NCBI GenBank assembly: GCA_963698035.1
Contig: OY969114.1
Location: forward strand, 744,854 to 776,853
Source of the DNA: Candidatus Saccharimonadota bacterium
GTDB lineage: Archaea; Micrarchaeota; Micrarchaeia; Micrarchaeales; Micrarchaeaceae
Direction: 5' to 3'
Length of the DNA stretch: 32,000 nucleotides
Every line of letters starts with the position of its first letter. Position 1 is the first letter of the stretch. A model generated the notes under the pieces. The model made no database searches. It saw only the letters and a program-made list of their open reading frames with translations, and was not told where the DNA came from. A program made the translations under genes and the position numbers. Positions 761 through 32,000 of this stretch are shown here, piece by piece.

Positions 761-795
761 TCTAATCTAACTAGGGACAGAGTATGCTCCAATCA

Positions 796-2884: not shown

Positions 2885-3014
2885 AAAATCATCGTAATAT
2901 ATTCATTGGTAAAGTAATAAAAGCGTTGATAAAATGGGCTTAATTATCAAAGCCACGCCCTAAGCCAAGCTCCAGCCTAGGAAAGGAGGGGGAGTGGAGA
3001 GGGCTCTCAGAAAG

Positions 3015-3022
3015 CATATAAG
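3015..3022 (+). promoter_or_regulatory. TATA box (CATATAAG) for the SemiSWEET gene
   Basis: Lies about 29 nt upstream of ATG 3045 (leaderless spacing). The same box and context recur at 10593-10601 upstream of the paralogous pseudogene. Confidence 0.5.
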
Positions 3023-3044
3023 GATTAAGGGTTCAATTTGATGT

Positions 3045-3299
3045 ATGTATTATGTTGAAATACTTGGTTTGATTGCAGGCTTCTTCACCACAATGGCATA
3101 TGCCCCACAAGCGATAAAGGCGCTCAAGACAAAGTCCACGAAGGATCTCTCAATCTTATGGCTTTCGATTGCAGGACTTGGAACCGCATTATGGATTTTC
3201 TATGGATTCTTCATAAGTTCCATTCCCATAATACTGTGGAACGTCGGGTCAGATGTGCTAATCGTGATACTCATAATGCTGAAGCTCAAATACGGCTAA
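3045..3299 (+). CDS. SemiSWEET / PQ-loop sugar transporter (single MtN3 unit)
   Basis: 84 aa with three hydrophobic helices and the PQ-loop motif MAYAPQAIKALKTKSTKDLS. Confidence 0.9.
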   Translation: MYYVEILGLIAGFFTTMAYAPQAIKALKTKSTKDLSILWLSIAGLGTALWIFYGFFISSIPIILWNVGSDVLIVILIMLKLKYG

Positions 3300-3466
3300 T
3301 AGCCTAAGCCCTAGCCCAAGCCCCAAAACTTCATATCCTATACCCTAAGGGTCTACGCGGAGAGTTTTTCCCCCAAAATGTCAGCTCATGACTTTTTTCA
3401 TAAGTTTTACGTGCTATCGGCTGAAGCATCCATTGGTTTTATAATAGTTAAATCAGCAGTTTTTCC

Positions 3467-6756: not shown

Positions 6757-6811
6757 CGTCCAAATCCCTAGCCCGAGAAGGAAGGAGCGCTCGAGAGACC
6801 TCAAGAAAAGT

Positions 6812-6820
6812 ATAAATATC
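6812..6820 (+). promoter_or_regulatory. BRE/TATA promoter box ATAAATATC (with shared leader module)
   Basis: AAGAAAAGT-ATAAATATC-ATAATAAAGTGAGC..TGTGAGAAA-ATG. The box lies 37 nt before ATG 6849. Its first 22 nt are identical to the copy at 12732. Confidence 0.65.
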
Positions 6821-6848
6821 ATAATAAAGTGAGCATTGCTGTGAGAAA

Positions 6849-7382
6849 ATGGTACGATATAATCAGAGAGCAAAACCAGCGGAAGATCTTGCAAGAGAGG
6901 TTACGGGTGCTCTGGGACATGATCCAATTTCATTACTGCGTATAGAATCTTATCCAGTCAGAATACGCAACGGGATAGAAATCATGATAGAACCGCCTTT
7001 TGAAACACAAGGCAATGTAAGGGACACGGTTCGAAACGCGATGAAAATGGTTGAAGAAGCTATTCGTGTTACAAACGAGGAGTTTAAATCTGGCCCGAAG
7101 GTAAAACTAGCGCGTGTAGAATTTCAAGTGGGTAGAGAGTACGATTCTATGAATGTCCGCGCCTGCTTTGGAAAAGACGATAATAAATTTGATAGGGGAA
7201 CCAAGGACTCCTTACATTATGCGCTTAGCGGGATGGGAGCGACTGAGATAAGTGAGAGTGTAAATTACCAACTGCGAGCGTTTGAGCTTTACTTCTCCAT
7301 GTCAACAATAGGCAAAAAACTCCACCCGCCGCAGATTTCCACAGAAGCTGTAAGGGAAGCAGTACAACGAAAAGACGCTTAG
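6849..7382 (+). CDS. hypothetical protein
   Basis: 177 aa, hydrophilic, no motif recognised. Headed by the shared promoter-leader module. Confidence 0.65.
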   Translation: MVRYNQRAKPAEDLAREVTGALGHDPISLLRIESYPVRIRNGIEIMIEPPFETQGNVRDTVRNAMKMVEEAIRVTNEEFKSGPKVKLARVEFQVGREYDSMNVRACFGKDDNKFDRGTKDSLHYALSGMGATEISESVNYQLRAFELYFSMSTIGKKLHPPQISTEAVREAVQRKDA

Positions 7383-8879: not shown

Positions 8880-10073
8880 ATGTACCTTCAAATGGGTCAG
8901 TCTATGGATGCAGTAAAAAGCGCACAAGCCTGCCCCGTCTCCTTGCAAAGCCCGGAGACGGTCCGAGAGCTTTCGAGAGCCTATGATATACCGGCAGTGG
9001 ACTGCACTCTGATTGCACTGAATGCGTGCGGCCTCAGCACGGATATGTCATATCAAAGGGTCCGTTTCAAGCTCTCTTTGCAATCGAACCCCGAGGATGT
9101 TTTCTATTTGGGCATACCTGTGCTGAAAAAGGGCACGCCATTCGTATTGTCTGCCGAAAGAAAACAGCTTCTGTTTGGGGGAGAGGCGATTGGAACCATA
9201 TTAAATGCAGAAAATGACACCTGTGATTCATCGTATTTTAGGCGGAACGACACGGCCCTTACAATAAATACGAATTCGAGAAGCTCCTGCACGGGCTGTG
9301 CATTTTGTGCAACCCACAGGCAAGATGCCACGGACAAAGACCGCCTTTTGGCAGAGGAGCAATTGTCCGCTTACGTGACCGAAGTGTTCTCTGATCCAAA
9401 AAAGATGGGCGCAACCAGGCCGCATTTCCACTCGGCAGCGCCTCTGGTTAGAAAGGAACTTGACTTTTCCGCCCTTGTCCAGCTTGCAATAGTAACAGCG
9501 TGCTTTGATTCAGAAAGTGCCACAGCTGAACATATCAGAATGGTCCACGGCTTTTTCAGGAGGCATGGCTTTAACGGAGAACTTCGTTACATAGGGTGTG
9601 AGGTGATATCTGAACCTGTGCTTAAATCGCTCAAGGAAGAGATCGGTGACCTCGACATATGTCTATCGCTGGAGTGCTTCACCAGGAGAGAAAAACTGCT
9701 GCGAAAGACAAAGTCAAAGCTTACAATTGAGGATGCAGCGCATGTGCTTGGCGTGATGAAAGACCTGGGGATCAAGGGCAGTTTCACTTATATAGTCGGT
9801 CTTGATCCATTAGAAGAGATGGAGCAAGGCTTGAAGGGGCTTGCGCCGGTTGTCAGTGCCTTCCCGACGTTCCAGGTGTTCCAGCCCCACTGGGAGAGCC
9901 AGAGTGCTTTGAGAGCACCGGAAGCAGGTTCGCTGGAGTACTACCTTGAAGCTAGAAAGACCATAGAATCGCTGTATGGCGGCACGGGGTTGCGCCCGAG
10001 GCTTTGGCAAAACTATAGATCCCTCTGGTTCCTGGATTTCGCGGGCGAACATATGCACGACATAAGGGTATGA
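8880..10073 (+). CDS. Fe-S / radical-SAM-like enzyme with non-canonical CX2CX2C motif
   Basis: 397 aa. The core ALTINTNSRSSCTGCAFCATHRQD .. IVTACFDSE .. ICLSLECFTRREKLL .. FTYIVGLDP is laid out like a radical-SAM barrel, but the Cys spacing is CX2CX2C rather than CX3CX2C. The stop overlaps the next start (ATGA). Confidence 0.75.
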   Translation: MYLQMGQSMDAVKSAQACPVSLQSPETVRELSRAYDIPAVDCTLIALNACGLSTDMSYQRVRFKLSLQSNPEDVFYLGIPVLKKGTPFVLSAERKQLLFGGEAIGTILNAENDTCDSSYFRRNDTALTINTNSRSSCTGCAFCATHRQDATDKDRLLAEEQLSAYVTEVFSDPKKMGATRPHFHSAAPLVRKELDFSALVQLAIVTACFDSESATAEHIRMVHGFFRRHGFNGELRYIGCEVISEPVLKSLKEEIGDLDICLSLECFTRREKLLRKTKSKLTIEDAAHVLGVMKDLGIKGSFTYIVGLDPLEEMEQGLKGLAPVVSAFPTFQVFQPHWESQSALRAPEAGSLEYYLEARKTIESLYGGTGLRPRLWQNYRSLWFLDFAGEHMHDIRV

Positions 10074-10540
10074 GCATGGCGCGAAAAACAATTAGTTTCG
10101 ACGCTCCGGGGCTTGTGGCTGCGACTCTTAGGGGTGCTGCAGAGCGCGCCGGGAGGAGGTTTTCAGGCATAGGAATCATAGTGTATAAAGGCAGTAAACT
10201 CGATTACGAATATCACGCAGACCTAAGGCCTAACATTCCGTGCCCAAAGGGCATACGGCTTGGAAGCGCAGTATGCATCGATGAACTATTAAGGATAAGC
10301 GATCGCAGCAACCCCCTGCACGATGGATTTAACCTTTTCAATGGCAAGGGGCGGCTGACCCACGTTGCACAGTACGTCTTTTTCAGGCCGGTCAGAGGAG
10401 CATCTTCACATGACGGCTATGGCACGCGCTATATGACTGCCAAGTATGGTTCATTTGACGATTCCATCCTCATGGCCGGGATAGTGGAGCACGACCGTAA
10501 GTGTTTTATGTTCCAGAACGGCAGAATGATACCCTTGTGA
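10070..10540 (+). CDS. minimal DAC-fold (DisA_N/CdaA-like) protein with substituted catalytic motifs
   Basis: 156 aa. Alignment by eye to diadenylate cyclase domains gives three matches: GIGIIVY; NPLHDGFNLF (compare PLHDGA); and GYGTRYMTAKYGS..ILMAGIVEHDRKCFMFQNGRM (compare GTRHRAA..IVVSEETG.IS..NG). The canonical DGA and RHR motifs read DGF and RYM here. Confidence 0.75.
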   Translation: MSMARKTISFDAPGLVAATLRGAAERAGRRFSGIGIIVYKGSKLDYEYHADLRPNIPCPKGIRLGSAVCIDELLRISDRSNPLHDGFNLFNGKGRLTHVAQYVFFRPVRGASSHDGYGTRYMTAKYGSFDDSILMAGIVEHDRKCFMFQNGRMIPL

Positions 10541-10624
10541 AAATCGAAGAGCGAATGACTTAAGCCCCTTGCCGGGGAAAGAGCCCCGGAAAGGTATATA
10601 GGAATTGCGGGTTCAATCTAATGC

Positions 10625-10878
10625 ATGTATTATTTAGTAATACTCGGTCTGGTCGCTGGATTCTTGACTACAATGGCATATGTTCCGCAAGTGATAAAGG
10701 CGCTCAAGACAAAGTCCATGAAGGATCTCTCAATGCTGTGGCTTTTGACTGCGGAATTCGGGGCATATTATGGGCTTTCTATGGATTTTTCATAAGCTCT
10801 GTTCCTGTAATGCTGTGGAACGCAGTGTCGGACGTGCTTGCCGTAATACTTATAGTACTGAAGCTCAAGTACGGCTGA
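10625..10878 (+). pseudogene. frameshifted SemiSWEET paralogue
   Basis: From ATG 10625 it reads MYYLVILGLVAGFLTTMAYVPQVIKALKTKSMKDLSMLWLL.. and hits TAA at 10793. The conserved C-terminal half (ILWAFYGFFISSVPVMLWNAVSDVLAVILIVLKLKYG) is in the frame of track ORF 10621-10878. Between 10736 and 10784 this copy is 1 nt shorter than the intact copy at 3045-3299. Confidence 0.75.
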
Positions 10879-10902
10879 TAGAGGCTGGGAAAGAATGCGG
10901 AC

Positions 10903-12639: not shown

Positions 12640-12731
12640 CAAATCTACATAATATATTACGCACAAAACATTAATAAAATTCGTTCCGGCCAAGCCTCAA
12701 GCCCAGAAGAGGAGGAAGGCTCTGAGAAGAC

Positions 12732-12740
12732 ATAAATATC
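12732..12740 (+). promoter_or_regulatory. BRE/TATA promoter box ATAAATATC (with shared leader module)
   Basis: GAGAAGAC-ATAAATATC-ATAATAAAGTGAGG..TGTGATAAT-ATG, 35 nt before ATG 12767. Confidence 0.65.
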
Positions 12741-12766
12741 ATAATAAAGTGAGGTTTTGTGATAAT

Positions 12767-13234
12767 ATGGTAAGCGTATCAAGAGCAAGAGCGATAACAG
12801 AAAGACTGGATAAAGAGCTTTTACATGTGAAAGCAGAATCTGATAGAGAACCGAAAGACGCCGCGCGTAACAGAGAAGAGAAAGAAATACGCATAGTTGA
12901 GCAGAGCGGAATACTAGACGTGCTAACGCCTAAACACATCAGAGTGCTAGAATCTATAGTCACTAGATCCCCAGCAGGAAGTCTGCTGCTAACGGAATTC
13001 TCAGGAGGACTTTACGCCCCGGATATGATGCCCAATGAGGTTGAGAGATGCGCATCTGACCTTTTGGATGCCGGGCTTATTACAATGAAGGAAAGAGGAG
13101 ACGCTGTTAATCCTGACGTAAGTATTACTCATAAAGGGCGCTTGGCCGTTGCTGCGGCGGCACGCTTAGAAGCTTATAAAAAGCTGACTAGGGTAGTTGG
13201 CACATTTGTCTCTAACCGAAGCCAACCTCACTAG
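12767..13234 (+). CDS. putative winged-helix DNA-binding protein
   Basis: 155 aa from ATG 12767; the track start at GTG 12749 lies in the leader. LTPKHIRVLESIV ... DLLDAGLITMKERGDAV..VSITHKGRLA looks like a MarR/ArsR-type wHTH. Confidence 0.6.
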   Translation: MVSVSRARAITERLDKELLHVKAESDREPKDAARNREEKEIRIVEQSGILDVLTPKHIRVLESIVTRSPAGSLLLTEFSGGLYAPDMMPNEVERCASDLLDAGLITMKERGDAVNPDVSITHKGRLAVAAAARLEAYKKLTRVVGTFVSNRSQPH

Positions 13235-13328
13235 GGCTAGGTAGAAAGGATTAACAAATTTGGGGGGAATGCTGGGGCTTCATAGAGCCTCTCTCCGTCT
13301 ATAAACCTTCTAAAAAAGCATAAATATC
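13231..13328 (+). repeat. 98-nt promoter-bearing intergenic repeat, copy 1
   Basis: CTAGGGCTAGGTAGAAAGGATTAACAAATTTGGGGGGAATGCTGGGGCTTCATAGAGCCTCTCTCCGTCTATAAACCTTCTAAAAAAGCATAAATATC. It aligns end to end with 14291-14388 at roughly three-quarters identity by eye. It ends in the TATA box. Confidence 0.75.
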
Positions 13329-13356
13329 ATGATAAATAGAGTCTTTTTGTGATACT

Positions 13357-13728
13357 ATGCCAGCAAATGTTACAGCTAGGGAAAAGGAGGAGTTGAAAAG
13401 TGTTGCATCCCTTCTTTTTATGGGTGGCAGGCCAGAAATAGCGACCCACCTGCTAAGGATAGTCGGAATCGGGTCCCAAGCCGAGATAGCTGGCGTAAAG
13501 GCATTGTTACGCGAGGATATTGATGTTCACGAAGCATCTAGTGCGCTAAACCGGACGGTCGAGATCCTTAAAAACCTAAGGAACGGCAGGGAGACGGAAA
13601 GGGCCAAGTGGGGCAAAATTGACGAAGACCTGCGCCAGGCCATTGAAGAAACCGAAACGTTGGCTGGTGGCGTCAAGACGCTTTCGGACCTCTCTGACGT
13701 TGGAATCGAGTATGTTGTTCCTAGATAA
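13357..13728 (+). CDS. hypothetical protein
   Basis: 123 aa with an ATGCCA (Met-Pro) start 37 nt after ATAAATATC (13320-13328) and the shared leader ..TTTGTGATACT-ATG. No motif recognised. Confidence 0.65.
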   Translation: MPANVTAREKEELKSVASLLFMGGRPEIATHLLRIVGIGSQAEIAGVKALLREDIDVHEASSALNRTVEILKNLRNGRETERAKWGKIDEDLRQAIEETETLAGGVKTLSDLSDVGIEYVVPR

Positions 13729-14453: not shown

Positions 14454-15476
14454 ATGCTAACGAAAACTGCGCTTCAAGAAGGGTTAACAATAACGAAAGA
14501 TTTTAGAGAAAAGGCCATGACCCACCGAACCAAGGTCGGTGGCGCTATTGAGTCCCACGGGGAGTGGAAGGGCGGCTTCAACATCGAACTTTTAGGTTAT
14601 GAGGGCTATCACGCCCAGGTCACCTCGCTTATAGCTGGCTTAGAAGAAGGTAACAGGGGTGAAGATTTCGGACACTATATTGAAATGTACCAAGACTCTG
14701 TGCTTGCCTTCCAAGGCAAGTTTGAGAAATACCCTATGTGCCCGCTAGATTGTTGGGGTTGGTACCATGCATATGCACCATCAGTAAGAGTAATCGTAGC
14801 AGATACAGCGGGTGATATTTATTATGATCAACCCCTTCAAAAAATATTAGAGTTGCCAGCTGGCGCCGAAGTTTACCCTTCAAAAACACTTCAAGAAGTA
14901 AAACCGCTCCAAAACATGAAGCCGTTAGGAGATAGAACGCCGCTCCAGACCGAGTTTTGGATGAGGCATTCCGAAGACATTGACGCCATAGCAAATGTAG
15001 CATTTGATTATAGAGATAGGAACATAGTATTCGGTGACGGCAAACAAAAATATTTGATTGACGCTGTCGCTTTTGTCATGTGTGATGGAAGGATTCAGGG
15101 TGGATATAGAACAGAAACAATCAACCATAAAGGGTTCACGGCAACAGATACTGGGTGCGTACTTGCATCACGACAAGGCTACCACGGTACCGATTATGAA
15201 ATAATGGCTCCTATTTTACCTCCGTGGGTTAAGGATGATGAGGCAAAAGCGTTTCTTTCAGTAGCAGTAGACTGGAAAAGAGTGTTAGATTTCGCAAATT
15301 CTGGCATGCGGCTTATCGTATTTAATTCTGAAAGAAAACAGATTTTTGATGGTCATTTAGTAGACGTCAATGCGAGCATTGTCGATGCCGGTGCTGTTTA
15401 TGACAGGCTTAGGCTGCTCAGGGGAAGGCTCAACTCGGAGCCGAAGCTTAAAAGCCTGGCTAGAGCCAAAAGCTAA
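14454..15476 (+). CDS. cytidine-deaminase-fold-like protein with non-canonical active-site residues (tentative)
   Basis: 340 aa. KVGGAIESHGEWKGGFNIE..YHAQVTSL..YPMCPLDCWGWY resembles the CDA pattern (VGAA..G.NIEN..[CH]AE..PCxxC), but Q replaces the catalytic E and the Cys spacing is CX3C. The second half (LIDAVAFVMCDGRIQGGYRTE) may be a degenerate second domain. Confidence 0.6.
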   Translation: MLTKTALQEGLTITKDFREKAMTHRTKVGGAIESHGEWKGGFNIELLGYEGYHAQVTSLIAGLEEGNRGEDFGHYIEMYQDSVLAFQGKFEKYPMCPLDCWGWYHAYAPSVRVIVADTAGDIYYDQPLQKILELPAGAEVYPSKTLQEVKPLQNMKPLGDRTPLQTEFWMRHSEDIDAIANVAFDYRDRNIVFGDGKQKYLIDAVAFVMCDGRIQGGYRTETINHKGFTATDTGCVLASRQGYHGTDYEIMAPILPPWVKDDEAKAFLSVAVDWKRVLDFANSGMRLIVFNSERKQIFDGHLVDVNASIVDAGAVYDRLRLLRGRLNSEPKLKSLARAKS

Positions 15477-16214: not shown

Positions 16215-16730
16215 GTGGGGGTTGAAAATCGCAAATACTCGGTCTATAGCTCAAACGTGATGGGCATCACAAAAGACGGCAGGCAGTACCTGAGGGATGT
16301 TCTCGTGCCCGCACTGAAAAAGCAGGGCAACATAGAAATCCTGGATCCGTGGGAATCTACATTGGCCGTGCGGGAGGAGGACATGCCAAGCAATCCGCCA
16401 TGCATGAGCAACGAGGAAAGAATGAAGATAGGCGTGGAGAACTTTGGCATGATCGACAGGGCCGATTTTATACTTGCTAACCTGGACGGGCGAGACGTTG
16501 ATTCTGGAGTCGGCGCAGAAATAGGATACGCCTATGCAAAAGGCAAGAAGATAATAGGATACTATAGAATTGATCCCGCTGCGTCGGGGTATAATGGACC
16601 CATACCGGAGAACATCCAGATTGAGGCCCCTATAAAACTATCCGGTGGGATAGTGGCAAGGAACCTGGACGACGCCATCAAAAGGCTTCAGGCAATGATA
16701 GAAACTGCCCCAAAGCTAGACAATGGCTAG
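16215..16730 (+). CDS. nucleoside 2-deoxyribosyltransferase / DNPH1-like family protein
   Basis: 171 aa. LANLDGRDVDSGVGAEIGYAYAKGKKIIGY matches the family motif. GTG 16215 lies about 25 nt after a TTTATATT box; ATG 16260 is an alternative start. Confidence 0.82.
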   Translation: MGVENRKYSVYSSNVMGITKDGRQYLRDVLVPALKKQGNIEILDPWESTLAVREEDMPSNPPCMSNEERMKIGVENFGMIDRADFILANLDGRDVDSGVGAEIGYAYAKGKKIIGYYRIDPAASGYNGPIPENIQIEAPIKLSGGIVARNLDDAIKRLQAMIETAPKLDNG

Positions 16731-16734
16731 AGAG
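16707..16734 (+). repeat. 28-nt exact repeat, copy 1 (GCCCCAAAGCTAGACAATGGCTAGAGAG)
   Basis: Identical to 20601-20628. Here it encodes the last residues (APKLDNG) and the stop codon of the 16215-16730 gene. Confidence 0.9.
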
Positions 16735-17140: not shown

Positions 17141-17231
17141 TAAGGGCTGGAGAGAAGAGGAGCGTGTTTCTAAAAGGGAATTCTAGGGCTCCCTAGAGCC
17201 TCCCTCTGCCTCTTAGAAATACTTAAATATC
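17141..17231 (+). repeat. promoter-bearing intergenic repeat, copy 3 (diverged)
   Basis: TAAGGGCTGGAGAGAAGAGGAGCG..GGGAATTCTAGGGCTCCCTAGAGCCTCCCTCTGCCTCTTAGAAATACTTAAATATC. It has the same module order as 13231 and 14291, and the TATA box lies at 17223-17231. Confidence 0.65.
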
Positions 17232-17259
17232 AAGATAAAGTGAGCACTTCTGTGATAGA

Positions 17260-17454
17260 ATGCCAGAAACAATCAAGAGAATTGAGACGAAGACTACATG
17301 GTCCGAAGTCCGTAAACTAGAAGATGGTGGTCGTGATTATCTTTATGGCCTTAAAGGTAGTGATGAACATACGCACACAACCACGAACAGTGATGGAGAT
17401 ATAACACACCGTGATGAACACAGCCCTAACGATACCAAAAAGCTCAAGAGATAA
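17260..17454 (+). CDS. hypothetical small hydrophilic protein
   Basis: 64 aa with an ATGCCA start 37 nt after TTAAATATC and the shared leader AAGATAAAGTGAGC..TGTGATAGA-ATG. Rich in His, Thr and Asp. Confidence 0.5.
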   Translation: MPETIKRIETKTTWSEVRKLEDGGRDYLYGLKGSDEHTHTTTNSDGDITHRDEHSPNDTKKLKR

Positions 17455-17495
17455 GGAGCTATTTTGGGCTCCCTAGAGCCCCAGAAACGCAAGCT

Positions 17496-17504
17496 ATATA
17501 TATC
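17496..17504 (+). promoter_or_regulatory. TATA box (ATATATATC) inside a TA-rich near-palindrome, relBE promoter
   Basis: CTATATATATCTATAGGTATATATATATAAC. It lies 30 nt before ATG 17526. Confidence 0.55.
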
Positions 17505-17525
17505 TATAGGTATATATATATAACT

Positions 17526-17759
17526 ATGGATAGTATAACTACCGTGCAGGTAAAGGTCAGCACAAAAAGAAAGCTGGAACAGCTTAAAATCGCACCTCAA
17601 GAGTCTATGGACTCTGTAATAGAGAGATTGACACATCTTGCCATAGATGAAGAGCCTCTTTCTAAGGAAGAAATCGCGGGCATAAGAAAAAGTCTCAAGG
17701 ACATCGAAAATGGAAGGGTTTACCCAGCAAGCGAGGTCTACAAGAAGCTAGGGATTTAA
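17526..17759 (+). CDS. relB: RelB/ParD-like antitoxin
   Basis: 77 aa with N-terminal VQVKVSTKRKLEQLK and C-terminal EEIAGIRKSLKDIENGRVYPASEVYKKLGI. The stop overlaps the toxin start (TAATG). Confidence 0.8.
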   Translation: MDSITTVQVKVSTKRKLEQLKIAPQESMDSVIERLTHLAIDEEPLSKEEIAGIRKSLKDIENGRVYPASEVYKKLGI

Positions 17760-18016: not shown

Positions 18017-18154
18017 TGGTTTCTTCTTCCCTAGCCCACGCTCAGAGAGCGAGAGGGGAAGGGGCCAGAGAGAAGGGGAGCTATCTTGGGCGCTGCTGGC
18101 GCCTTAGAGTGGGCTAGAGGGCCTGCGAGGCCCTCCTGAACCTTCTAAAAAGAC

Positions 18155-18163
18155 TTATATATC
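18155..18163 (+). promoter_or_regulatory. BRE/TATA promoter box TTATATATC (with shared leader module)
   Basis: CTAAAAAGAC-TTATATATC-TAGAGAAATAGAG..AAGTGATAAT-ATG, 39 nt before ATG 18194. Confidence 0.6.
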
Positions 18164-18193
18164 TAGAGAAATAGAGAAAGTGCAAGTGATAAT

Positions 18194-18382
18194 ATGGAAG
18201 TACAAAAGCCTACGCGTTTGAATAATAGATATACTATCGAGGTCGCGACACCTCTTCTAAGACCTGGGCTGTCTATACACACAGAGGTTTCTGAACGCTA
18301 TGTAGTTCCAGTCACATTGAAGTTAATGAGCATGTTAAGAGAAATTAATGCAACTGAGAACGAGAAAATAGAACAAAAGTGA
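18194..18382 (+). CDS. hypothetical small protein
   Basis: 62 aa behind the shared leader. Its TGA stop is embedded in the GTGATAAT motif that precedes the next gene. Confidence 0.5.
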   Translation: MEVQKPTRLNNRYTIEVATPLLRPGLSIHTEVSERYVVPVTLKLMSMLREINATENEKIEQK

Positions 18383-20547: not shown

Positions 20548-20607
20548 AAAGCCTTAAAGCCTTTAGCTATCTAGCTAAGCCACTAGCTAAGCTAAGCCAA
20601 GCCCCAA
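20548..20607 (+). repeat. extended AAGCC/TAGCT tract
   Basis: AAAGCCTTAAAGCCTTTAGCTATCTAGCTAAGCCACTAGCTAAGCTAAGCCAAGCCCCAAAG. This is the longest example of the C-rich tract in the window. Confidence 0.6.
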
Positions 20608-20628
20608 AGCTAGACAATGGCTAGAGAG
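20601..20628 (+). repeat. 28-nt exact repeat, copy 2
   Basis: Identical to 16707-16734. Its 3' part overlaps the stop codon and last codons of the minus-strand gene 20621-21448. Confidence 0.9.
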
Positions 20629-27635: not shown

Positions 27636-27660
27636 GCTCAAGCCTCAAGCCCAAGCCCCA
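27636..27660 (+). repeat. AAGCCN hexamer tract
   Basis: GCTCAAGCCTCAAGCCCAAGCCCCA. It starts directly after the TGA stop at 27633-27635. Confidence 0.6.
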
Positions 27661-27666
27661 GGCCCC

Positions 27667-27704
27667 GGGCCCGGGCGGGAGGGGGAGAGGGAGAGCAGGG
27701 CGGG
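27667..27704 (+). other. G-quadruplex-type motif
   Basis: GGGCCCGGGCGGGAGGGGGAGAGGGAGAGCAGGGCGGG: seven runs of at least three G in 38 nt. Confidence 0.5.
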
Positions 27705-27714
27705 AGGCTAGACC

Positions 27715-27993
27715 CTAGGCACCAGGCTCATAAATATTATCATGATGGTCATAATCCTCTATGATTACGACTTTCCTAGCTTCATCTATAGAATAAGTTA
27801 GTACAAAGCTCTTGTCTATATGGACGGCTCTTATCCCCTGCATAGGTTTATTGAGCGGCTTGAATCTATAAGGATCTTCTAGTATCTGAGCCAGCTTCTT
27901 TCTAATAATCAGTAATTGCATGTGGCTTTTCTTTTCCATCTTCTTGAAGAGCTTTTGTACGTGTTCTCTCATTTCGTAGGTATAGGCTACCAT
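27715..27993 (-). CDS. relE: RelE/YoeB-like toxin (archaeal RelE type)
   Basis: 92 aa. The segment KLAQILEDPYRFKPLNKPMQGIRAVHIDKSFVLTYSIDEARKVVIIEDYDHHDNIY shows the RelE-superfamily pattern. Confidence 0.85.
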   Translation of the reverse strand: MVAYTYEMREHVQKLFKKMEKKSHMQLLIIRKKLAQILEDPYRFKPLNKPMQGIRAVHIDKSFVLTYSIDEARKVVIIEDYDHHDNIYEPGA

Positions 27994-28003
27994 GCCAATC
28001 TAC

Positions 28004-28246
28004 CTACTTGATATTGAACATTCTGTCAAAATCCTTCATGCTGCCTACGCGCACGGTCTTCTCCCTAGCTATCTTCTCGAGTTTCTTTAGGTAAGAGGCC
28101 TTAATCCTAGGCTCAAAAACGAGCGTTTCGTATTCTTTAGCCATCGCATCTATAGCCTGCGACTTGTCCTTTAGACCGTACGAGGCCTTAATTACATTAA
28201 GTATCCTGTTAGCATTATCGCTTATGTCCACTATAGCTTTAACCAT
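28004..28246 (-). CDS. antitoxin partner of RelE (DUF2683-like by eye)
   Basis: 80 aa beginning MVKAIVDISDNANRILNVIKASYGLKDKSQAIDAMAKEYE. It sits 10 nt upstream of the toxin gene. A TATA box read on the minus strand lies at 28276-28286. Confidence 0.8.
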   Translation of the reverse strand: MVKAIVDISDNANRILNVIKASYGLKDKSQAIDAMAKEYETLVFEPRIKASYLKKLEKIAREKTVRVGSMKDFDRMFNIK

Positions 28247-28295
28247 ATTAACACCATATCAATACAGCGCTAATAGATATAAATAGCTTGTGGTA

Positions 28296-28386
28296 GCCAA
28301 GCCCTCCCCTCCGCCAGATCCCTAGCAAGGCCCCGGGAGGCGAGCGAGCCGGGAGGCGAGCGGGGAGAGGGGGAGAGGGGCTCGGG
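28296..28386 (+). repeat. GC-rich spacer repeat family, copy A
   Basis: GCCAAGCCCTCCCCTCCGCCAGATCCCTAGCAAGGCCCCGGGAGGCGAGCGAGCCGGGAGGCGAGCGGGGAGAGGGGGAGAGGGGCTCGGG. It has an internal tandem GGGAGGCGAGCGAGCC and ends in a canonical G4 motif at 28362-28386. Confidence 0.75.
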
Positions 28387-28459
28387 ATGGCCCTGGGAGG
28401 GAGGCTATGGTTAAAGCCTTAAATTCCTTGTTATGGAGAAGTAAGCTAGAAGTGCTCTT

Positions 28460-29326
28460 ATGTATTTACCCATACTAGCTGGCCTTGTTGCTGCGCTATT
28501 TTGGGGGCTATCCGATTATCTTATTACTAAGCCAACAAGAGCTCTTGGGCAGTATAGGACAACAGCTTACGCTATGCTATTTAGTACGATAGTTCTCCTG
28601 CCGTTTCTGTTGCTTACTGGAATCAATCTTCACATTAGCCCATTGGTGTTGTTATTGGCTATTTTGTCATCAATAGGTGCGTTCGTAGGCTTCTTTTTCG
28701 CTTATAGGGCGTACAAGATTGGCGATCTTTCAATTACTGCACCTATAGTTGGCTCCTATCCAGCTATCATAGTCTTGGGCTCTGTGCTAATCCTTGGAGA
28801 CAAGCTAACTCTTGTAGAGATCGCTTCCATAATCACCATAATAGTTGGAATAATACTGGTGTCAACGAGATTGAGCTCATTCAAGCATAAGCGAAAGCTG
28901 GTCGTAGCTGGAGTGGGGAGCGCTTTAATCGCAATGCTATTTCTTGGCACACCTGGTATTTTTGCTGGCGCTTACACTGTAATCATAGGCTTTGTTTTGC
29001 TGAGCCTAATGTGGAGGAGCATAACTAGCGCCAGCGGGTTTATAACCGGACACTTTGCAAAGCAGGACATGCGCCTGCCAGCAAAACGCTATCTGCTACC
29101 CATAATTGGCGCAGGGGTAACAGACGCATTTGCGGTACTAGCATTTTTGTATGCAGTCCAAGTTAAGAGCTCAACGCTTCCAATAATATCTGCTATATCG
29201 GGCTTTGCTGGTGCTGTTACTGTGATATGTGCCTTTATCCTGCTCAAAGAAAGGCCAGAAAAGAACCAGTGGCTTGGCATTACGCTTGCAGTCATAGGTG
29301 TTATTGCTCTCTCTTACTTTGCCTAG
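28460..29326 (+). CDS. EamA/DMT-superfamily transporter
   Basis: 288 aa with ten hydrophobic helices in two EamA-like halves. Confidence 0.88.
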   Translation: MYLPILAGLVAALFWGLSDYLITKPTRALGQYRTTAYAMLFSTIVLLPFLLLTGINLHISPLVLLLAILSSIGAFVGFFFAYRAYKIGDLSITAPIVGSYPAIIVLGSVLILGDKLTLVEIASIITIIVGIILVSTRLSSFKHKRKLVVAGVGSALIAMLFLGTPGIFAGAYTVIIGFVLLSLMWRSITSASGFITGHFAKQDMRLPAKRYLLPIIGAGVTDAFAVLAFLYAVQVKSSTLPIISAISGFAGAVTVICAFILLKERPEKNQWLGITLAVIGVIALSYFA

Positions 29327-29344
29327 CTAAGCCTAGCTTCTAAG

Positions 29345-29395
29345 CCCAAGCCCTCCACCCAGATCCCTAGCAAGCCCTGGAGGGCGGGAGAGAGA
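29345..29395 (+). repeat. GC-rich spacer repeat family, copy B (short)
   Basis: CCCAAGCCCTCCACCCAGATCCCTAGCAAGCCCTGGAGGGCGGGAGAGAGA. It lies between convergent genes and is in the same orientation as copy A. Confidence 0.7.
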
Positions 29396-29398
29396 AAG

Positions 29399-29719
29399 CT
29401 AGGAGAGCTTTAGGTCACTAACACTCTGTATGTCATCGAAATCACTATCATTAGTCGATAGCGGTTCGTCCTTATTTATGCAGATTGCGGCTATAATAAG
29501 ATCTGCCGAGCCTTTCATACGGCCTATTTTCCTTAATTTATTCTGCAACTCTACAGCAAAGTTGAGGTCTCCCGCTTCAGGATAAAATATCTTGCCGTAA
29601 AAATACTTGTACTCCAGAATCATCGGGTACTCTATTACTGTTATTATTGTAGTATTCTCATGAATAGCCTTCCCTTCGGATACCCTTTCAAGCACCAAAT
29701 TGGTGTCAATAACAGTCAT
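29399..29719 (-). CDS. vapC: PIN-domain VapC toxin
   Basis: 106 aa with VIDTNLV, SADLIIAAICI and LSTNDSDFDD, the acidic PIN residues. Confidence 0.85.
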   Translation of the reverse strand: MTVIDTNLVLERVSEGKAIHENTTIITVIEYPMILEYKYFYGKIFYPEAGDLNFAVELQNKLRKIGRMKGSADLIIAAICINKDEPLSTNDSDFDDIQSVSDLKLS

Positions 29720-29732
29720 AAACGAGACACCT

Positions 29733-29891
29733 TTATGCTGGTTGCTTTATTCTAGTAATGAGCCTGTGCTTTTCTTGTTCTCTTAAACTAGCTATCGCTG
29801 CCTTTTCAAATTCCGATATCGATATCTTCTTCTTAAGCCTTTTAATCCCGAGCATCTTTCGCAAGGCTTCGACAGTGCTTGACTTTACCAT
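29733..29891 (-). CDS. vapB: putative VapB-type antitoxin (52 aa, below the track cutoff)
   Basis: Hand translation gives MVKSSTVEALRKMLGIKRLKKKISISEFEKAAIASLREQEKHRLITRIKQPA. It ends 13 nt before the vapC start. On the minus strand it is preceded by TTTATTATATC and a GTGATGCT-ATG motif. Confidence 0.55.
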   Translation of the reverse strand: MVKSSTVEALRKMLGIKRLKKKISISEFEKAAIASLREQEKHRLITRIKQPA

Positions 29892-29945
29892 AGCATCACA
29901 TAATACCTAGCACCTCTAAGATATAATAAACCTAGCTTACTTTTA

Positions 29946-30003
29946 GCCAAAGCCCCGGAGGGCGAGCGAGCCGGGAGGCGAGCGTGGAGAGGGGGGCGTG
30001 GGA
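29946..30003 (+). repeat. GC-rich spacer repeat family, copy C (partial)
   Basis: GCCAAAGCCCCGGAGGGCGAGCGAGCCGGGAGGCGAGCGTGGAGAGGGGGGCGTGGG. It lies between divergent genes and is in the same orientation as copies A, B and D. Confidence 0.7.
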
Positions 30004-30020
30004 AGCGCTCGTTGAAAAGT

Positions 30021-30029
30021 ATATATATC
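30021..30029 (+). promoter_or_regulatory. BRE/TATA promoter box ATATATATC (with leader module)
   Basis: TGAAAAGT-ATATATATC-ATAAAAATGCATAAGCTTTGTTGAT-ATGCCA, 34 nt before ATG 30055. Confidence 0.55.
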
Positions 30030-30054
30030 ATAAAAATGCATAAGCTTTGTTGAT

Positions 30055-30345
30055 ATGCCAACTAGCTCTGTATCAACTATGTGCAGATCGTGGGCTGAGA
30101 GTGATGTAAAGCTACTCATGCGCACATTGAAGGAAGCTCGCTCAGATGGCTTTAGAAGTTCTTCTCCTAACGAGGTGCACACGAAGCTAAACCACTACAT
30201 GGAACCGCTTGCTAGATTATTTGATAAATATAGTACGCCAGCAGATGACAGAGAAGCTGTGAAAGATGCGGTAATTGGAGAACTACAGGCTGGCTATCGA
30301 AGAGAGATTGTAGATAGCGCCAAGCCACGACGCTTCGAATCCTAA
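30055..30345 (+). CDS. hypothetical protein
   Basis: 96 aa with an ATGCCA start behind the leader module. No motif recognised. Confidence 0.55.
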   Translation: MPTSSVSTMCRSWAESDVKLLMRTLKEARSDGFRSSSPNEVHTKLNHYMEPLARLFDKYSTPADDREAVKDAVIGELQAGYRREIVDSAKPRRFES

Positions 30346-30360
30346 CCACGCTAAGCACCA

Positions 30361-30448
30361 AGCCAAGCCCTCCACCAGATACCTAGCAAGGCCCCGGAGG
30401 GAGCCGGGAGGGCGAGCGAGCCTGGAGGGCGAGCGGGGGAGAGGGGCT
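30361..30448 (+). repeat. GC-rich spacer repeat family, copy D
   Basis: AGCCAAGCCCTCCACCAGATACCTAGCAAGGCCCCGGAGGGAGCCGGGAGGGCGAGCGAGCCTGGAGGGCGAGCGGGGGAGAGGGGCT. Confidence 0.75.
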
Positions 30449-30486
30449 ATCACAAAGGCTTTATTTCTATTCCGAGCTATGGAAGT

Positions 30487-30831
30487 ATGAAGCACCTTAA
30501 CCTAGAAGAGATTGTAGAAATGAATAAAGCAGTGGGTGCTACCGGAGCGCTAGTTAATAAGGGTAATCTAGAGTTTGTGCTAGCTAGCATCAAAGATTCA
30601 AAAAATATTGTAAGGTGTGCTGCTGCTATACTGCACGGAATAATAACGCTTCACGCCTTTCTTGATGGAAACAAGCGTACAGCATTCATGGCTATGGTAA
30701 CCTTTCTCAGAATAAATGGCAAGAGCATAAAGATGAGTGAAAAAGAGGCTGAAAGGCTAGTGAGCGACATAGCAATGGATAAGTATAATAAGGATAAAGT
30801 TGAAAATATTATTGAAAAGCTGATAGCATGA
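30487..30831 (+). CDS. doc: Doc (death-on-curing) Fic-fold toxin
   Basis: 114 aa with the Fic/Doc motif HAFLDGNKRTAF. Confidence 0.9.
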   Translation: MKHLNLEEIVEMNKAVGATGALVNKGNLEFVLASIKDSKNIVRCAAAILHGIITLHAFLDGNKRTAFMAMVTFLRINGKSIKMSEKEAERLVSDIAMDKYNKDKVENIIEKLIA

Positions 30832-30944
30832 GAGCGTTCGTAAAGAAGGCGTTTGAAAAAGAGCTAGCAGAATGGAAGGCTCTGATAAAAGCACTAGCTT
30901 CAGAAAGACTAGCGCATGCCATGCAGAAACAGAAGATGAGATAA
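30828..30944 (+). CDS. possible small partner protein of Doc (38 aa)
   Basis: Hand-found ORF MRAFVKKAFEKELAEWKALIKALASERLAHAMQKQKMR. Its ATG overlaps the doc stop (ATGA). Positional evidence only. Confidence 0.35.
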   Translation: MRAFVKKAFEKELAEWKALIKALASERLAHAMQKQKMR

Positions 30945-31017
30945 TACTATTTTTAAGAGCCTAAAGCCCTAAGCCCATAGGAGGCGCCTGGGGGCGCGGG
31001 GGAGGAGAGGGTAGGTA

Positions 31018-31026
31018 ATAAATATC
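31018..31026 (+). promoter_or_regulatory. BRE/TATA promoter box ATAAATATC (with shared leader module)
   Basis: ATAAATATC-TAAATAAAGCTAGAATCGTGTGATAGA-TTG-GCA. It aligns with the 17223 module and places a TTG start at 31054. Confidence 0.6.
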
Positions 31027-31053
31027 TAAATAAAGCTAGAATCGTGTGATAGA

Positions 31054-31401
31054 TTGGCAACTGCTGCTACACCGATGAAAATATCATTCGGCGAGTCTTT
31101 TCATCCTACAATGATATTGGATGGTACGAAAGATACAACAATACGCTTGTCAGTACGTGATCTGAAGGAAGGGAATATCATTGTTCTTGTTGATAGGGAG
31201 GGAAAGGAGTTCGGAAAAGCTACAATAATTAGCGTTAAGATGACAACGCTTGGAAATCTTACAAAAGAAGACATGGAAGGCCATGAAAAATACTCATCGC
31301 AAAAGGAATTGTATAGAACATTTCAAAAGTATTATCCAAATATCAGCGTTGGTGCGGAAACGCCAGCACAGGTAATAAAGTTTAAGCTCATAAAAGCCTA
31401 A
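31054..31401 (+). CDS. ASCH-domain (PUA-like) protein
   Basis: 115 aa with ISFGESFHPTMILDGTKDTTIR ... GNLTKEDMEGHE ... VIKFKLI, a typical ASCH layout. The TTG start at 31054 is supported by the leader alignment; ATG 31075 is the alternative. Confidence 0.8.
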   Translation: MATAATPMKISFGESFHPTMILDGTKDTTIRLSVRDLKEGNIIVLVDREGKEFGKATIISVKMTTLGNLTKEDMEGHEKYSSQKELYRTFQKYYPNISVGAETPAQVIKFKLIKA

Positions 31402-31532
31402 GCCCAGAATATACACCCTATATCTCCCTGAGAGGAGGAGGCGCCTGGGGAGGAGGGCTTTCTGGTTCTGGGAGGAAGGGGGAGTCCTGAGAGGGTGGTA
31501 ATGTTTAAAGCCTTTTATTGAGAAGAGAGGAT

Positions 31533-31910
31533 ATGGCAGAAACATTTATCGTGCGATTCTCGAGCCATGATGCTGATTTAAGAGCCATGGATGCTATGGC
31601 CAGATTAGGCAGAGTACATAGTACAGAGAATGGAGATAATTTCATAAATAGAAGACAGCTTGAAGAGCTTCAGAGGCTTGAAATACCTTATAAGCTCGTG
31701 GGCCCTGCGCCACAAAATCAAACCGTAGAAGCATGGCAGAATGTTATAGATGCTGCATACAGGCATGCAAATAGAGGTAGAATCGGAGAAGCCACTGACT
31801 TGCTTCGAAAAGGTGCGCGCCTTTATCCGGAACACGAGAAAGATTTTACTGATGTGACTGCTCTTATTGTTGGAAATCATTTACGTTCGAAAAGAGGACC
31901 TGGTCATTAA
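31533..31910 (+). CDS. hypothetical protein
   Basis: 125 aa from ATG 31533; the track start is TTG 31518. It lies about 30 nt after TGTTTAAAG. No motif recognised. Confidence 0.55.
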   Translation: MAETFIVRFSSHDADLRAMDAMARLGRVHSTENGDNFINRRQLEELQRLEIPYKLVGPAPQNQTVEAWQNVIDAAYRHANRGRIGEATDLLRKGARLYPEHEKDFTDVTALIVGNHLRSKRGPGH

Positions 31911-31969
31911 CATAATATGATAGATAAAATCTATTTCTATGAATTAAGCCCAAGCTCATGGCCTCCTGA

Positions 31970-31993
31970 GGGAGGGGGATGGGGGCTCTGGGG
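31970..31993 (+). other. G-quadruplex-type motif
   Basis: GGGAGGGGGATGGGGGCTCTGGGG: four G-runs with loops of 1-4 nt, at the window edge. Confidence 0.45.
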
Positions 31994-32000
31994 AGGAGGG

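Follow-up and report, generated by a model that had tools for sequence, protein, structure and literature searches.

An array of exchangeable gene units separated by directional repeats in the chromosome of an uncultured micrarchaeon

Introduction

We describe a stretch of 32,000 nucleotides from an archaeal genome assembled from environmental DNA (contig OY969114.1 of assembly GCA_963698035.1, positions 744,854 to 776,853 of the forward strand; phylum Micrarchaeota), which we call the window, and the short GC-rich repeats, called boundary repeats, that separate the small gene units within it. A first-pass annotation, made from the sequence alone, had singled out the region from 27.6 to 31.5 kb as a cassette-like array of single genes and toxin-antitoxin (TA) pairs. 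What we find is a chromosomal array of exchangeable gene units, longer than 32 kb and with its distal part in the window, in an uncultured soil or peat archaeon. All boundary repeats in it have the same orientation, whatever the orientation of the genes that they separate.

Among platforms that assemble single-gene cassettes into arrays, only integrons are, to our knowledge, well understood. Canonical attC sites, which bacterial IntI1 can recombine, are a feature of the archaeal integrons described to date. It is of interest to establish which features the present array shares with integrons, and which other processes might have produced it.

Results

Layout of the array

The window is filled by about 30 units of one to three genes each, with inserts of 0.3-3 kb, and the same spacer plan recurs at nearly every unit junction from about position 420, beside the gene guaB, to the end of the window and past 32000. 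The extent first proposed, 27.6-31.5 kb, was correct for that region and understated for the array as a whole. The features are listed below, with spacers and units given in full for the region from 27.6 kb onwards; promoters are predicted ones.

1-370 (-): guaB (IMP dehydrogenase), N-terminal 113 residues; thousands of PF00478 IMP dehydrogenase matches to the translation
384-460 (+): left end of the array, a half spacer with the G-rich arm only, GGGCGAGC..CCGGGGCAGGCTAG, then the BRE/TATA (B recognition element and TATA box) module GAAAGCTATAAATATC
461-27635 (+): upstream array, about 24 units of 1-3 genes; spacers of the same plan; repeat families D4/D6 (GGGCTAGAGAGAAGGGGAGC...)
27636-27714 (+): spacer, convergent junction; (CAAGCCC)n, then a G-rich run ending GGGAGGCTAGACC; weak profile match at 27643-27681 (+)
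27715-28293 (-): reverse RelE-antitoxin unit with its own promoter; TATA at about 28276-28285, end ..GCTTGTGG
27715-27993 (-): RelE/ParE-like toxin; Pfam E 6e-5, below the Pfam cutoff
28004-28246 (-): DUF2683-like antitoxin; weak Pfam match, below the cutoff
28294-28402 (+): spacer, divergent junction; TAGCCAAGCCCTCCCC arm, core CCAGATCCCTAGCAAGGCCCCGG, (GAGGCGAGCGAGCC)2, G-rich arm; families D1 and D14; profile E 1e-5
28409-29326 (+): EamA/DMT transporter unit; TATA-like TTAAAGCCTTAAATT; EamA at 28460-29326, Pfam E 3e-27
29327-29398 (+): spacer, convergent junction; CTAAGCCTAGCTTCTAAGCCCAAGCCC arm, core CCAGATCCCTAGCAAGCCC, short G arm ending AAGCTAGG; profile E 1.6e-8
29399-29940 (-): reverse unit of a PIN-like toxin with its own promoter; PIN at 29399-29719, E 1e-3, weak and below the Pfam cutoff
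29733-29891 (-): 52-aa partner of the PIN-like toxin
29941-30006 (+): truncated spacer, divergent junction; TAGCCAAAGCCCCGG joined directly to (GAGGGCGAGCGAGCC)2 and a G arm; D1 copy, 92%
30014-30345 (+): unit of a 96-aa open reading frame (ORF; 30055-30345) of unassigned family; promoter GAAAAGTATATATATC (D10)
30346-30450 (+): spacer, tandem junction; AAGC/AAGCC repeats, core CCAGATACCTAGCAAGGCCCCGG, (GAGCGAGCCGGGAGGGC)2.3, GGGGGAGAGGGGCTA; profile E 4e-5
30455-30944 (+): Fic/Doc toxin unit with promoter; Fic/Doc at 30487-30831, Pfam E 1e-10
30828-30944 (+): 38-aa ORF overlapping Fic/Doc
30955-31017 (+): spacer, tandem junction; CTAAAGCCCTAAGCCC, then GGAGGCGCCTGGGGGCGCGGGGGAGGAGAGGGTAGG
31013-31401 (+): unit of an ASCH-domain protein; promoter GGTAATAAATATC; ASCH at 31075-31401, Pfam E 1e-10
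31394-31498 (+): spacer, tandem junction; stop codon inside GCCTAAGCCC, long G-rich arm ending ..CCTGAGAGGGTGG; break against contig L003 at GAGAGGGTGG
31489-31956 (+): 125-aa ORF unit, limits set by comparison; GAGAGGGTGG, TATA (TTTAAAGCC), ORF 31533-31910, TAAGCCCAAGCTC
31940-32000 (+): next spacer, cut by the window end; about 45 nt more in contig L002

The units named in the first-pass annotation lie where it had placed them, as judged by ORFs and Pfam. The TA calls for the RelE/ParE-like and PIN genes rest on weak matches, and on a paired, overlapping layout that is typical of TA genes.

A junction, read along its length, begins with a stop codon, often within TAAGCC or TAGCC. Tandem (Y)AAGCC(C) repeats follow, and then a GC-rich or G-rich stretch that often ends in GGCTAG. 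Beyond it lie a BRE/TATA-like motif and a short leader with a GTGAT-like, Shine-Dalgarno-like motif. The BRE/TATA-like motif (A/TTAAATATC, TTTATATC) is found 25-45 nt ahead of nearly every unit start, reversed units included, and every unit is predicted to carry its own archaeal-type promoter. On this reading of the sequence a unit would begin about 8-10 nt 5' of the promoter and end at the stop codon or shortly inside the AAGCC repeats. Units occur in either orientation between the boundary repeats, most of them being co-oriented. No oligo-T terminators are visible at the spacers.

The GC content of the genes ranges from 34% to 55% across the window. The cargo includes five TA units (the RelE-antitoxin, PIN and Doc pairs and a ParE-antitoxin pair, plus those in the related contig L090), a GNAT acetyltransferase, methyltransferases and many ORFs without a family, according to Pfam for about 45 window ORFs and NCBIfam and PHROGs for 10 unknown ones. 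The part upstream of 27.6 kb contributes Amt, two PQ-loop paralogs, methyltransferases, a SET protein, deaminases, a phosphoribosyltransferase with a nucleoside deoxyribosyltransferase, ParE with its antitoxin, a GNAT, an EEP nuclease, a DUF6884 protein (strong match) and many further ORFs without a family.

The array begins beside the housekeeping gene guaB, since only a G-rich half spacer, which lacks the AAGCC arm, and a promoter module separate the start of guaB from the first unit at about 473. No integrase is present at this border. The named IMP dehydrogenase matches to guaB are only about 65% identical and taxonomically mixed, and the best homologue reaches at most 72%. The mechanical ORF list also has an entry on the + strand at 24-371, which is spurious; guaB occupies the reverse strand there. 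To the right of the window, contig L002 runs on for 1.9 kb, with one more spacer and then a two-gene stretch without spacers. The window has no tRNA genes and no Rfam match, either at the gathering threshold or at E<=1; a tRNA-linked island was accordingly discarded as a candidate. We estimate that the array makes up about 3-4% of a genome of roughly 1 Mb.

The boundary repeat and its orientation

A repeat search recovered copies at 28297-28373, 29342-29381, 29948-29995 and 30358-30445. They resolve into family D1 (28326-28373, 29948-29995, 30398-30445) and family D14 (28297-28336, 29342-29381, 30358-30397). The four repeats first reported at 28296-28386, 29345-29395, 29946-30003 and 30361-30448 are thereby recovered, and Tandem Repeats Finder bears out both the shared core CCAGATCCCTAGCAAGG and internal tandem units of 12-17 nt (GCGAGCCGGGAG and similar). 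The core that had been attributed to all four is present in three; the copy at 29946 is truncated and has neither the C-rich arm nor the core.

The boundary repeats are imperfect and about 37-110 bp long. The C-rich arm starts with tandem (Y)AAGCC, often overlapping a TAA or TAG stop codon, while the G-rich arm consists of micro-tandem repeats of very variable length and usually ends in GGCTAG. In one sub-family the two arms enclose a conserved, asymmetric core, CCCTAGCA(A/G)G(C/G)(C/G)CC. The middle parts of the spacers fall into at least three sub-families in the window: the core plus GAGGCGAGCGAGCC type; the GGGCTAGAGAGAAGGGGAGC-TAGAGCACCCCTCTAAGGGGCCC type (families D4/D6), with 8 copies; and plain G-rich types such as GGGCGGGAGG. 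The single repeat family of the first-pass annotation is thus the core type of its own region, and one of several in the window.

That annotation had argued for a fixed orientation from the observation that all copies run from C-rich to G-rich on the + strand. Polarity alone is uninformative, because it is unchanged when a unit is reverse-complemented: if genes were each preceded, 5' of the promoter, by G-rich sequence and followed, 3' of the stop codon, by C-rich sequence, all junctions would read C to G. The conclusion itself stands, on the strength of asymmetric motifs. The core CCAGAT(C/A)CCTAGCAAGG lies on the + strand at 28321, 29366 and 30382, that is, at a divergent, a convergent and a tandem junction. 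Across the window, tandem AAGCC..AAGCC occurs 11 times on the + strand and 0 times on the - strand, the corresponding counts for YWAGCCYHAGCC and for GAGARRGGG are both 8:0, and GGCTAG is found 24 times against 9 for its complement. Several copies of the asymmetric motifs are in -+ junctions (1047, 8802, 12692, 17117). At such junctions a tail carried by a gene could not be on the + strand. Matches of the repeat profile found with nhmmer are likewise all on one strand. The boundary repeats are all direct repeats of one another, with their orientation fixed by asymmetric motifs.

Canonical G-quadruplex motifs occur in both arms, those of the G arms being on the + strand and those of the C arms on the - strand (i-motif on +). 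The window has 7 on + (among them 19050, 25591, 26185, 27667, 28362 and 31970) and 3 on - (19415, 27650, 29351), and the related contig L090, described below, has 4 and 6. There are none in 60 kb of backbone loci (contigs L094, L010 and L013). A generic detector of C-to-G skew switches was also tried for finding spacers and was dropped as too noisy.

Unit-level variation between related arrays

The comparison contigs come from other samples and were found by look-ups of exact proteins and of 90% clusters; they are short metagenome assemblies. Contigs L006 and L091 are MEGAHIT assemblies from ENA, L007 and L090 are JGI contigs, and L093 is from the same JGI sample as L007. Gene order varies among these relatives, and L003, L006/L007, L008 and L090/L091 all differ from the window by whole units.

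In L003, which is from another sample, the 125-aa unit is 100% identical to that of the window; the identical block, 469 bp long, runs from GAGAGGGTGG, which lies just 5' of the TATA box, up to TAAGCCCAAGCTC, shortly 3' of the stop codon. Its flanks differ: the left neighbour is a 73-aa gene on the minus strand, the sequence past the next spacer is also another one, and the G arm upstream of the unit is wholly different. The RelE-antitoxin unit is present in three other contexts at 87-95% identity, with homology that stops at GCTTGTGG and GGCTAGACC. One such context is L006/L007, where the order is VapB-PIN / RelE-antitoxin (reversed) / 95 aa / EEP, as against PEMT / EEP / DUF6884 / RelE-antitoxin (reversed) / EamA in the window; here the homology spans GGGAGGCTAGACC to ..ATAAATAGCTTGTGG and ends at the next AGCC. 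L008 contains an EamA homologue of about 90% identity, differs from the window upstream up to the TATA box, and has another + strand gene downstream. The break points in these comparisons lie at the repeats.

A unit has also been duplicated within the window. Two PQ-loop/SWEET-like genes of 84-85 aa, at 2996-3302 (gene 3045-3299) and 10576-10881 (gene 10621-10878), have 79% nucleotide identity, and their homology is limited to the interval that starts just 5' of the TATA box and ends with the stop codon. Taken together, the unit comparisons indicate that the exchangeable unit is a promoter plus its gene or genes, and that the spacers are separate, fast-evolving entities.

Contigs L090 (16.6 kb) and L091 (10.4 kb) are arrays of at least 30 small units. 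Their cargo comprises two PIN_2/RHH pairs, PemK, Fic plus a 39-aa ORF, a RelE-antitoxin pair, SET, TspO, an aldo-keto reductase, PadR and many unknowns. Of 32 genes, only the RelE-antitoxin pair is shared with the window at high identity (92-95% aa); distant matches are Doc (38%) and SET (31%). The pairing of Fic with a small ORF is seen here as it is in the window, the Fic/Doc proteins of the two having 38% amino acid identity. Nearly all junctions nevertheless contain AAGCC(T/C)CCCCACCC(C)AG(C/A)(C/T)CCC-TAGCAGGCGCC-GGGGG..., with a G arm of 0-70 nt. Repeat-bearing junctions are of the ++, +-, -+ and -- types, and the core is on one strand in all 14 of the 14 intergenic copies in L090, and in all 18 distinct copies across L090 and L091.

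The repeats themselves undergo rapid insertion and deletion. L090 and L091 are 99.98-100% identical except for one 39-nt indel (L090:12772-12836 against L091:4869-4973), which takes out exactly the C arm, the core and the short G arm of one spacer, between AAG microhomologies. L093 is collinear with window positions 576-3416 at 95.8% identity, and its differences are spacer indels of 16-30 nt. The 39-nt indel and the 30-nt indel between L093 and the window are compatible with deletion at microhomologies or with slippage. L093 also keeps the position of Amt (1124-2401), which sits between array spacers in the window and has a GC content of 53%, clearly above its neighbours.

Assembly chimerism was rejected as the sole cause of the reshuffling: the JGI and ENA MEGAHIT contigs agree (L006 with L007, L090 with L091), with the proviso that agreeing contigs may stem from the same reads, and the variant contexts are 80-95% diverged and are not recombined copies of the window.

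The repeat outside the array

The distribution of the repeat was judged from the window and the comparison contigs, and is therefore indirect for the source genome. The region upstream of guaB does not have the spacer design. Contig L094 is from a relative whose L7Ae is 84% identical; its 17.5 kb of core genome contains no repeat motifs, and the intergenic regions are ordinary and AT-rich. The Amt-anchored loci of Micrarchaeota, Bathyarchaeota and Thermoplasmata metagenome-assembled genomes (MAGs) (L010-L019; Amt 59-74% identity) have no repeats either and were thus uninformative on synteny; the window Amt is 70-74% identical to that of MAGs labelled Micrarchaeota. Taken as a whole, this indirect evidence argues against the repeat being a genome-wide feature.

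The L7Ae of contig L092 has its closest matches among proteins of Candidatus Micrarchaeaceae and Micrarchaeia (73-81% identity); together with the Amt identities, this makes a Micrarchaeota host probable for the window. L092 has a RelE-antitoxin unit abutting an rpl7ae-rps28e-rpl24e-ftsZ backbone, about 60 nt upstream of the conserved rpl7ae promoter region. There is no spacer on that side, and the backbone has no repeat copies. When L092 1519-1748 is set against L094 6884-7017, the matching place in L094 has the stop codon of EF-2, which lies directly upstream of rpl7ae. Arrays or units may hold different chromosomal sites in different genomes, the site in the window being guaB.

The spacer pattern GGGCTAGAGAGARGGNRAGNNAGAGCACC has 0 matches in genome contigs, and in metagenome contigs matches only the JGI contig already known. 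In viral contigs, the core pattern gave 0 matches, the generic AAGCC pattern gave only unspecific ones and a scan with the antitoxin protein returned nothing. A search of window:27600-31600 against a plasmid collection gave no match.

Folding and complementarity of the arms

According to the first-pass annotation, each repeat could fold into a long imperfect hairpin. Our folding tests do not support this. An attC site, for comparison, folds as a conserved single-stranded hairpin, with R''/R' and L''/L' pairing and extrahelical bases. When eight spacers were folded as single-stranded DNA, on both strands, and compared with dinucleotide shuffles, seven had z-scores of -0.7 to +1.6, no better than the shuffled controls, the exception being one spacer with z -2.1/-1.7. 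RNAalifold applied to 20 aligned repeat copies returned 0 consensus pairs, and pairing in a candidate 6-bp helix around the core amounts to 64%, equal to that in shuffled and shifted controls. Given these null results, the core sub-family appears to conserve a sequence (about 35-40 nt) and not a fold.

What does survive of the hairpin proposal is a weak complementarity of the arms. Within a spacer, the C arm and the G arm complement each other better than permuted arms do (mean local score 9.1 versus 8.06 +/- 0.32, p ~0.001, n = 20), and for arms that flank the same gene unit the complementarity is at background. This pattern favours the spacer as a symmetric entity, like attC or a recombinase site with inverted arms, and argues against units with terminal inverted repeats of their own.

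Recombinases and integron features

No recombinase was found with Pfam among about 45 window ORFs, with NCBIfam and PHROGs among the 10 unknown ones, in the roughly 2 kb beyond the window in L002, or in the Pfam annotation of 18 kb of related arrays in L090/L091. In attC sites the inverse core RYYYAAC and the core GTTRRRY lie 40-140 nt from each other. A regular-expression search for such core-site pairs, RYYYAAC/GTTRRRY, on both strands of the window gave only 3, all of them in genes and 0 in spacers. On both counts, the lack of an integrase and the lack of consistent core sites in the window, the first-pass annotation was right.

An IntI-type tyrosine recombinase (PF00589 plus an IntI-specific domain) marks an integron; it is not required for a cluster of attC sites lacking integron-integrases (CALIN), and none was found in the window. 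Integrons and CALINs also have two or more directly oriented sites, within 4 kb of each other and with short ORFs between them; here it is the boundary repeat family, and not attC, that supplies such sites. Like integron or CALIN cassettes, the units occur in different arrays and orders, with their boundaries at sites (L003, L006/L007, L008, L090/L091, L092). Integron cassettes are mostly promoterless and are served by a common Pc promoter, whereas the array units here have a BRE/TATA-like motif of their own. The array is not a canonical integron.

Discussion

The layout of the array is that of a chromosomal integron or CALIN, because it combines direct asymmetric repeats, one repeat per unit, inserts in either orientation, cargo turnover and core-gene neighbours. 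The resemblance to sedentary integrons and CALINs goes further. They too form long chromosomal arrays of short, mostly co-oriented units (about 0.3-1.5 kb), each with one directly oriented and imperfectly symmetric site, regardless of the orientation of the ORF, and stop codons are often within the start of the site. Within a lineage the repeat type is kept and the cargo is almost wholly different; TA pairs (often reversed), acetyltransferases, methyltransferases and unknowns abound; and most arrays have no adjacent integrase. The array nonetheless differs from them in that one sub-family has a conserved central sequence, where the centre of attC is variable, in that its G arms are micro-tandem repeats of highly variable length, and in that neither RYYYAAC/GTTRRRY sites, nor a conserved fold, nor IntI was found. 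The analogy drawn in the first-pass annotation, to sedentary integrons and possibly to a distinct system, gains from the finding of units in new contexts with homology breaks at the spacers.

The process that we regard as most likely, with about an even chance, is that of an integron-like cassette array in which a recombinase encoded elsewhere acts at the boundary repeats. From the patterns described above we infer that recombination is site-specific, where its crossover falls, and that a dedicated recombinase carries it out. The boundary repeats would be the substrates for insertion, loss, duplication and reshuffling of units, and the recombinase would recognise the conserved core and the arms. 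In that case the array would function as sedentary chromosomal integrons and CALINs do, with different sites and with promoter-bearing cassettes, and the abundant TA units would stabilise it. Because the two arms are partly complementary, it is conceivable that a unit could be inverted, with both cores left in place, if the G arm to one side of it recombined with the C arm to the other.

More tentatively, and with rather less confidence, the Micrarchaeota, which belong to the DPANN archaea, may possess a system for capturing and shuffling cassettes that is mechanistically distinct from integrons. Such a system would have its own class of directional sites of 40-110 bp (an AAGCC-repeat C arm, an asymmetric core and a G-quadruplex-prone G arm), possibly a recombinase of a new kind, and promoter-bearing cassettes in either orientation. 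There is a substantial chance that the machinery is new.

Several observations weigh against recombination by a dedicated enzyme at these sites. No recombinase was found in the 32-kb window, in L002 or in L090/L091. The spacers in the window are of at least three sub-families and do not constitute one homogeneous site, and a folded site has neither thermodynamic nor covariation support. The homology breaks do not define a crossover point to the single nucleotide, and the block of identity in L003 leaves out most of both flanking spacers, which fits homologous exchange as well as site-specific exchange. More generally, the two kinds of exchange are not cleanly separable, because homology blocks end at slightly different places and spacers change by slippage. 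The 3 kb next to guaB are collinear in L093, so the array is not in flux throughout. Finally, the comparison contigs are short, the distribution of the repeat is seen only in them and in the window, and the scan of genome contigs gave no match.

A rival reading is a flexible genomic island, in which ordinary RadA-type homologous recombination or gene conversion uses the intergenic modules as portable homology and no dedicated recombinase takes part. Exchange within the array, and with incoming DNA of relatives, would then swap, delete and duplicate genes. We think this unlikely, yet deserving of serious weight. It agrees with the failure to find a recombinase, with homology blocks that end at variable spacer positions and not at one nucleotide, with mosaic spacers whose sub-families share modules (including a promoter plus leader of about 50 nt, D3/D5), and with slippage-type spacer indels between arrays that are otherwise 96-100% identical. 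The shared stretches, however, are short (mostly <40 nt), imperfect and poor substrates. Nor does homologous recombination by itself explain a core orientation that stays the same around reversed units, the co-variation of the two arms of a spacer, or the recurrence of the same repeat in an array with almost entirely different cargo. The spacers might instead be small non-autonomous mobile repeats, akin to repetitive extragenic palindromic (REP) sequences, bacterial interspersed mosaic elements (BIME), BOX elements or miniature inverted-repeat transposable elements (MITE), that have spread through the spaces between genes of an accessory island, inserting strand-specifically while gene shuffling proceeds separately. 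Their orientation could come, for example, from replication-coupled single-strand transposition as in IS200/IS605 or REP-associated tyrosine transposases (RAYT), and a uniform orientation over tens of kb is what one would expect within one replichore. The modular build (A arm, repeated B units, C arm), the fact that copies always follow ..AAG, and the precise presence or absence of 39 nt, arm plus core plus arm, between L090 and L091 are all in line with this. That 39-nt indel is equally explained, though, by deletion between AAG microhomologies, and neither an HUH transposase nor one of another kind was seen. Each junction has a single element, operons have none within them, the 17.5 kb of core genome of a relative has none either, a stop codon is often within the start of the element, and the break points of unit reshuffling coincide with the elements. 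On balance we judge mobile repeats to be improbable.

Two further accounts have little to recommend them, and we consider each very improbable. One is growth of the kind known from casposons and from CRISPR arrays, each unit being an insert flanked by inverted G and C arms, and the core a target-site duplication remade at every insertion. It would account for direct cores around units of both orientations, for G and C arms that form inverted repeats around each unit, and for termini GGGGGC..GCCCCC that abut the 11-nt TAGCAGGCGCC. The unit upstream of rpl7ae in L092, where L094 has EF-2 directly upstream, also suits it, as the 3' end of the aEF-2 gene is a known casposon target. Arms around the same unit, however, are no more complementary than random, while those of the same spacer are; the G arm next to the 100%-identical 125-aa unit differs completely between contexts; many window spacers have no core; and neither Cas1 nor a casposase was seen. 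The other account is a purely regulatory intergenic design, genome-wide and unrelated to mobility, with a C-rich tail and a G-quadruplex-prone run as terminator or insulator ahead of a strong promoter. The spacers do lie exactly between stop codons and promoters, the G-quadruplex motifs are concentrated in spacers and absent from the backbone loci, and oligo-T terminators are not visible. Such a design does not predict an orientation independent of the flanking genes (-- and -+ junctions) or cargo that turns over at the spacers, and the spacers are absent from the guaB upstream region, the rpl7ae region and the core genome of the relative.

It remains to compare the array with other known repeat and module systems. 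REP/BIME of E. coli, the pneumococcal BOX elements, boxA-(boxB)n-boxC, and the Correia elements of Neisseria occur genome-wide and in both orientations. They resemble the boundary repeats in being GC-rich, modular and 40-150 bp long, with two arms that are partly complementary and internal repeats that vary in number; they are intergenic, can carry or abut promoters and terminators, and show polymorphism in presence and length. The copies described here differ in being concentrated in the array, one per junction and in one orientation, with gene turnover at those places. The tycheposon islands of Prochlorococcus and the pdif modules of Acinetobacter plasmids similarly place small cargo modules, often TA pairs, between repeated sites, and the modules have different surroundings in related replicons. 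In tycheposons the repeats are partial tRNA genes and tyrosine recombinases lie nearby, and pdif sites are 28 bp long and alternate in orientation; neither matches a repeat of 40-110 bp with C arm, core and G arm in uniform orientation. Xer/pdif modules (28-bp XerC-spacer-XerD, alternating) were considered and rejected, as the array sites are longer and all in one orientation. CRISPR and casposon arrays have in common with the present one direct repeats in one orientation between unrelated inserts, which themselves have either orientation, whereas the repeats here are imperfect and length-variable, the inserts are genes of 0.3-3 kb, predicted to be expressed, and cas genes are lacking. A CRISPR array proper (near-identical repeats of 23-50 bp, spacers of 25-50 bp) was likewise rejected, since the repeats and inserts do not fit and there is no CRISPR match in Rfam.

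The survey of archaeal integrons by Ghaly et al. 2022 (PMC9668308) relied on canonical attC models, and the available parts of its main text and supplements mention neither Micrarchaeota nor the core sequence. We found no prior description of such arrays, or of this repeat, in the literature. Arrays of cassettes are as such already known; what appears to be new here is an integron-like array with different, directional sites and with cassettes predicted to bear promoters. If this is true, the same logic has been realised with unrelated sites, which would imply that cassette platforms evolved more than once. Genome-reduced, host-dependent DPANN archaea would gain a dedicated route for the turnover of accessory genes, and surveys based on attC would miss a class of such arrays. 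The boundary repeat provides a concrete search key, with which the hypothesis is testable on existing long-read soil metagenomes.

Additional observations

A promoter-plus-leader module of about 50 nt, GAAAGCWTAAATATC..AAAGTGAGC..TGTGATAnnATG, recurs with 65-85% identity before unrelated genes, up to the start codon. Its conservation exceeds what a BRE/TATA consensus needs. Several copies are in L090, and those in the window are:

6796-6851: promoter-plus-leader module
12716-12771: promoter-plus-leader module
13304-13359: promoter-plus-leader module
17207-17262: promoter-plus-leader module
18139-18195: promoter-plus-leader module

Among the ORFs of the window, one on the minus strand at 17343-17636 is probably spurious. 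The region in which it lies, 17260-17759, has two ORFs on the + strand, of 64 aa and 77 aa; the second is antitoxin-like, and its end overlaps the start of ParE at 17759. Three sizeable ORFs of 397, 156 and 340 aa, in 8880-10540 and 14454-15476, have no family match. On visual inspection, a CX2CX2C cysteine motif (SSCTGCAFCATH) is apparent in the 397-aa ORF, and the one of 340 aa looks like a deaminase; neither resembles a recombinase.

An exact repeat of 28 nt, GCCCCAAAGCTAGACAATGGCTAGAGAG, occurs at 16707-16734 and at 20601-20628. Both copies lie at the meeting point of a truncated spacer and a reverse-oriented unit, at the 3' end of the latter.

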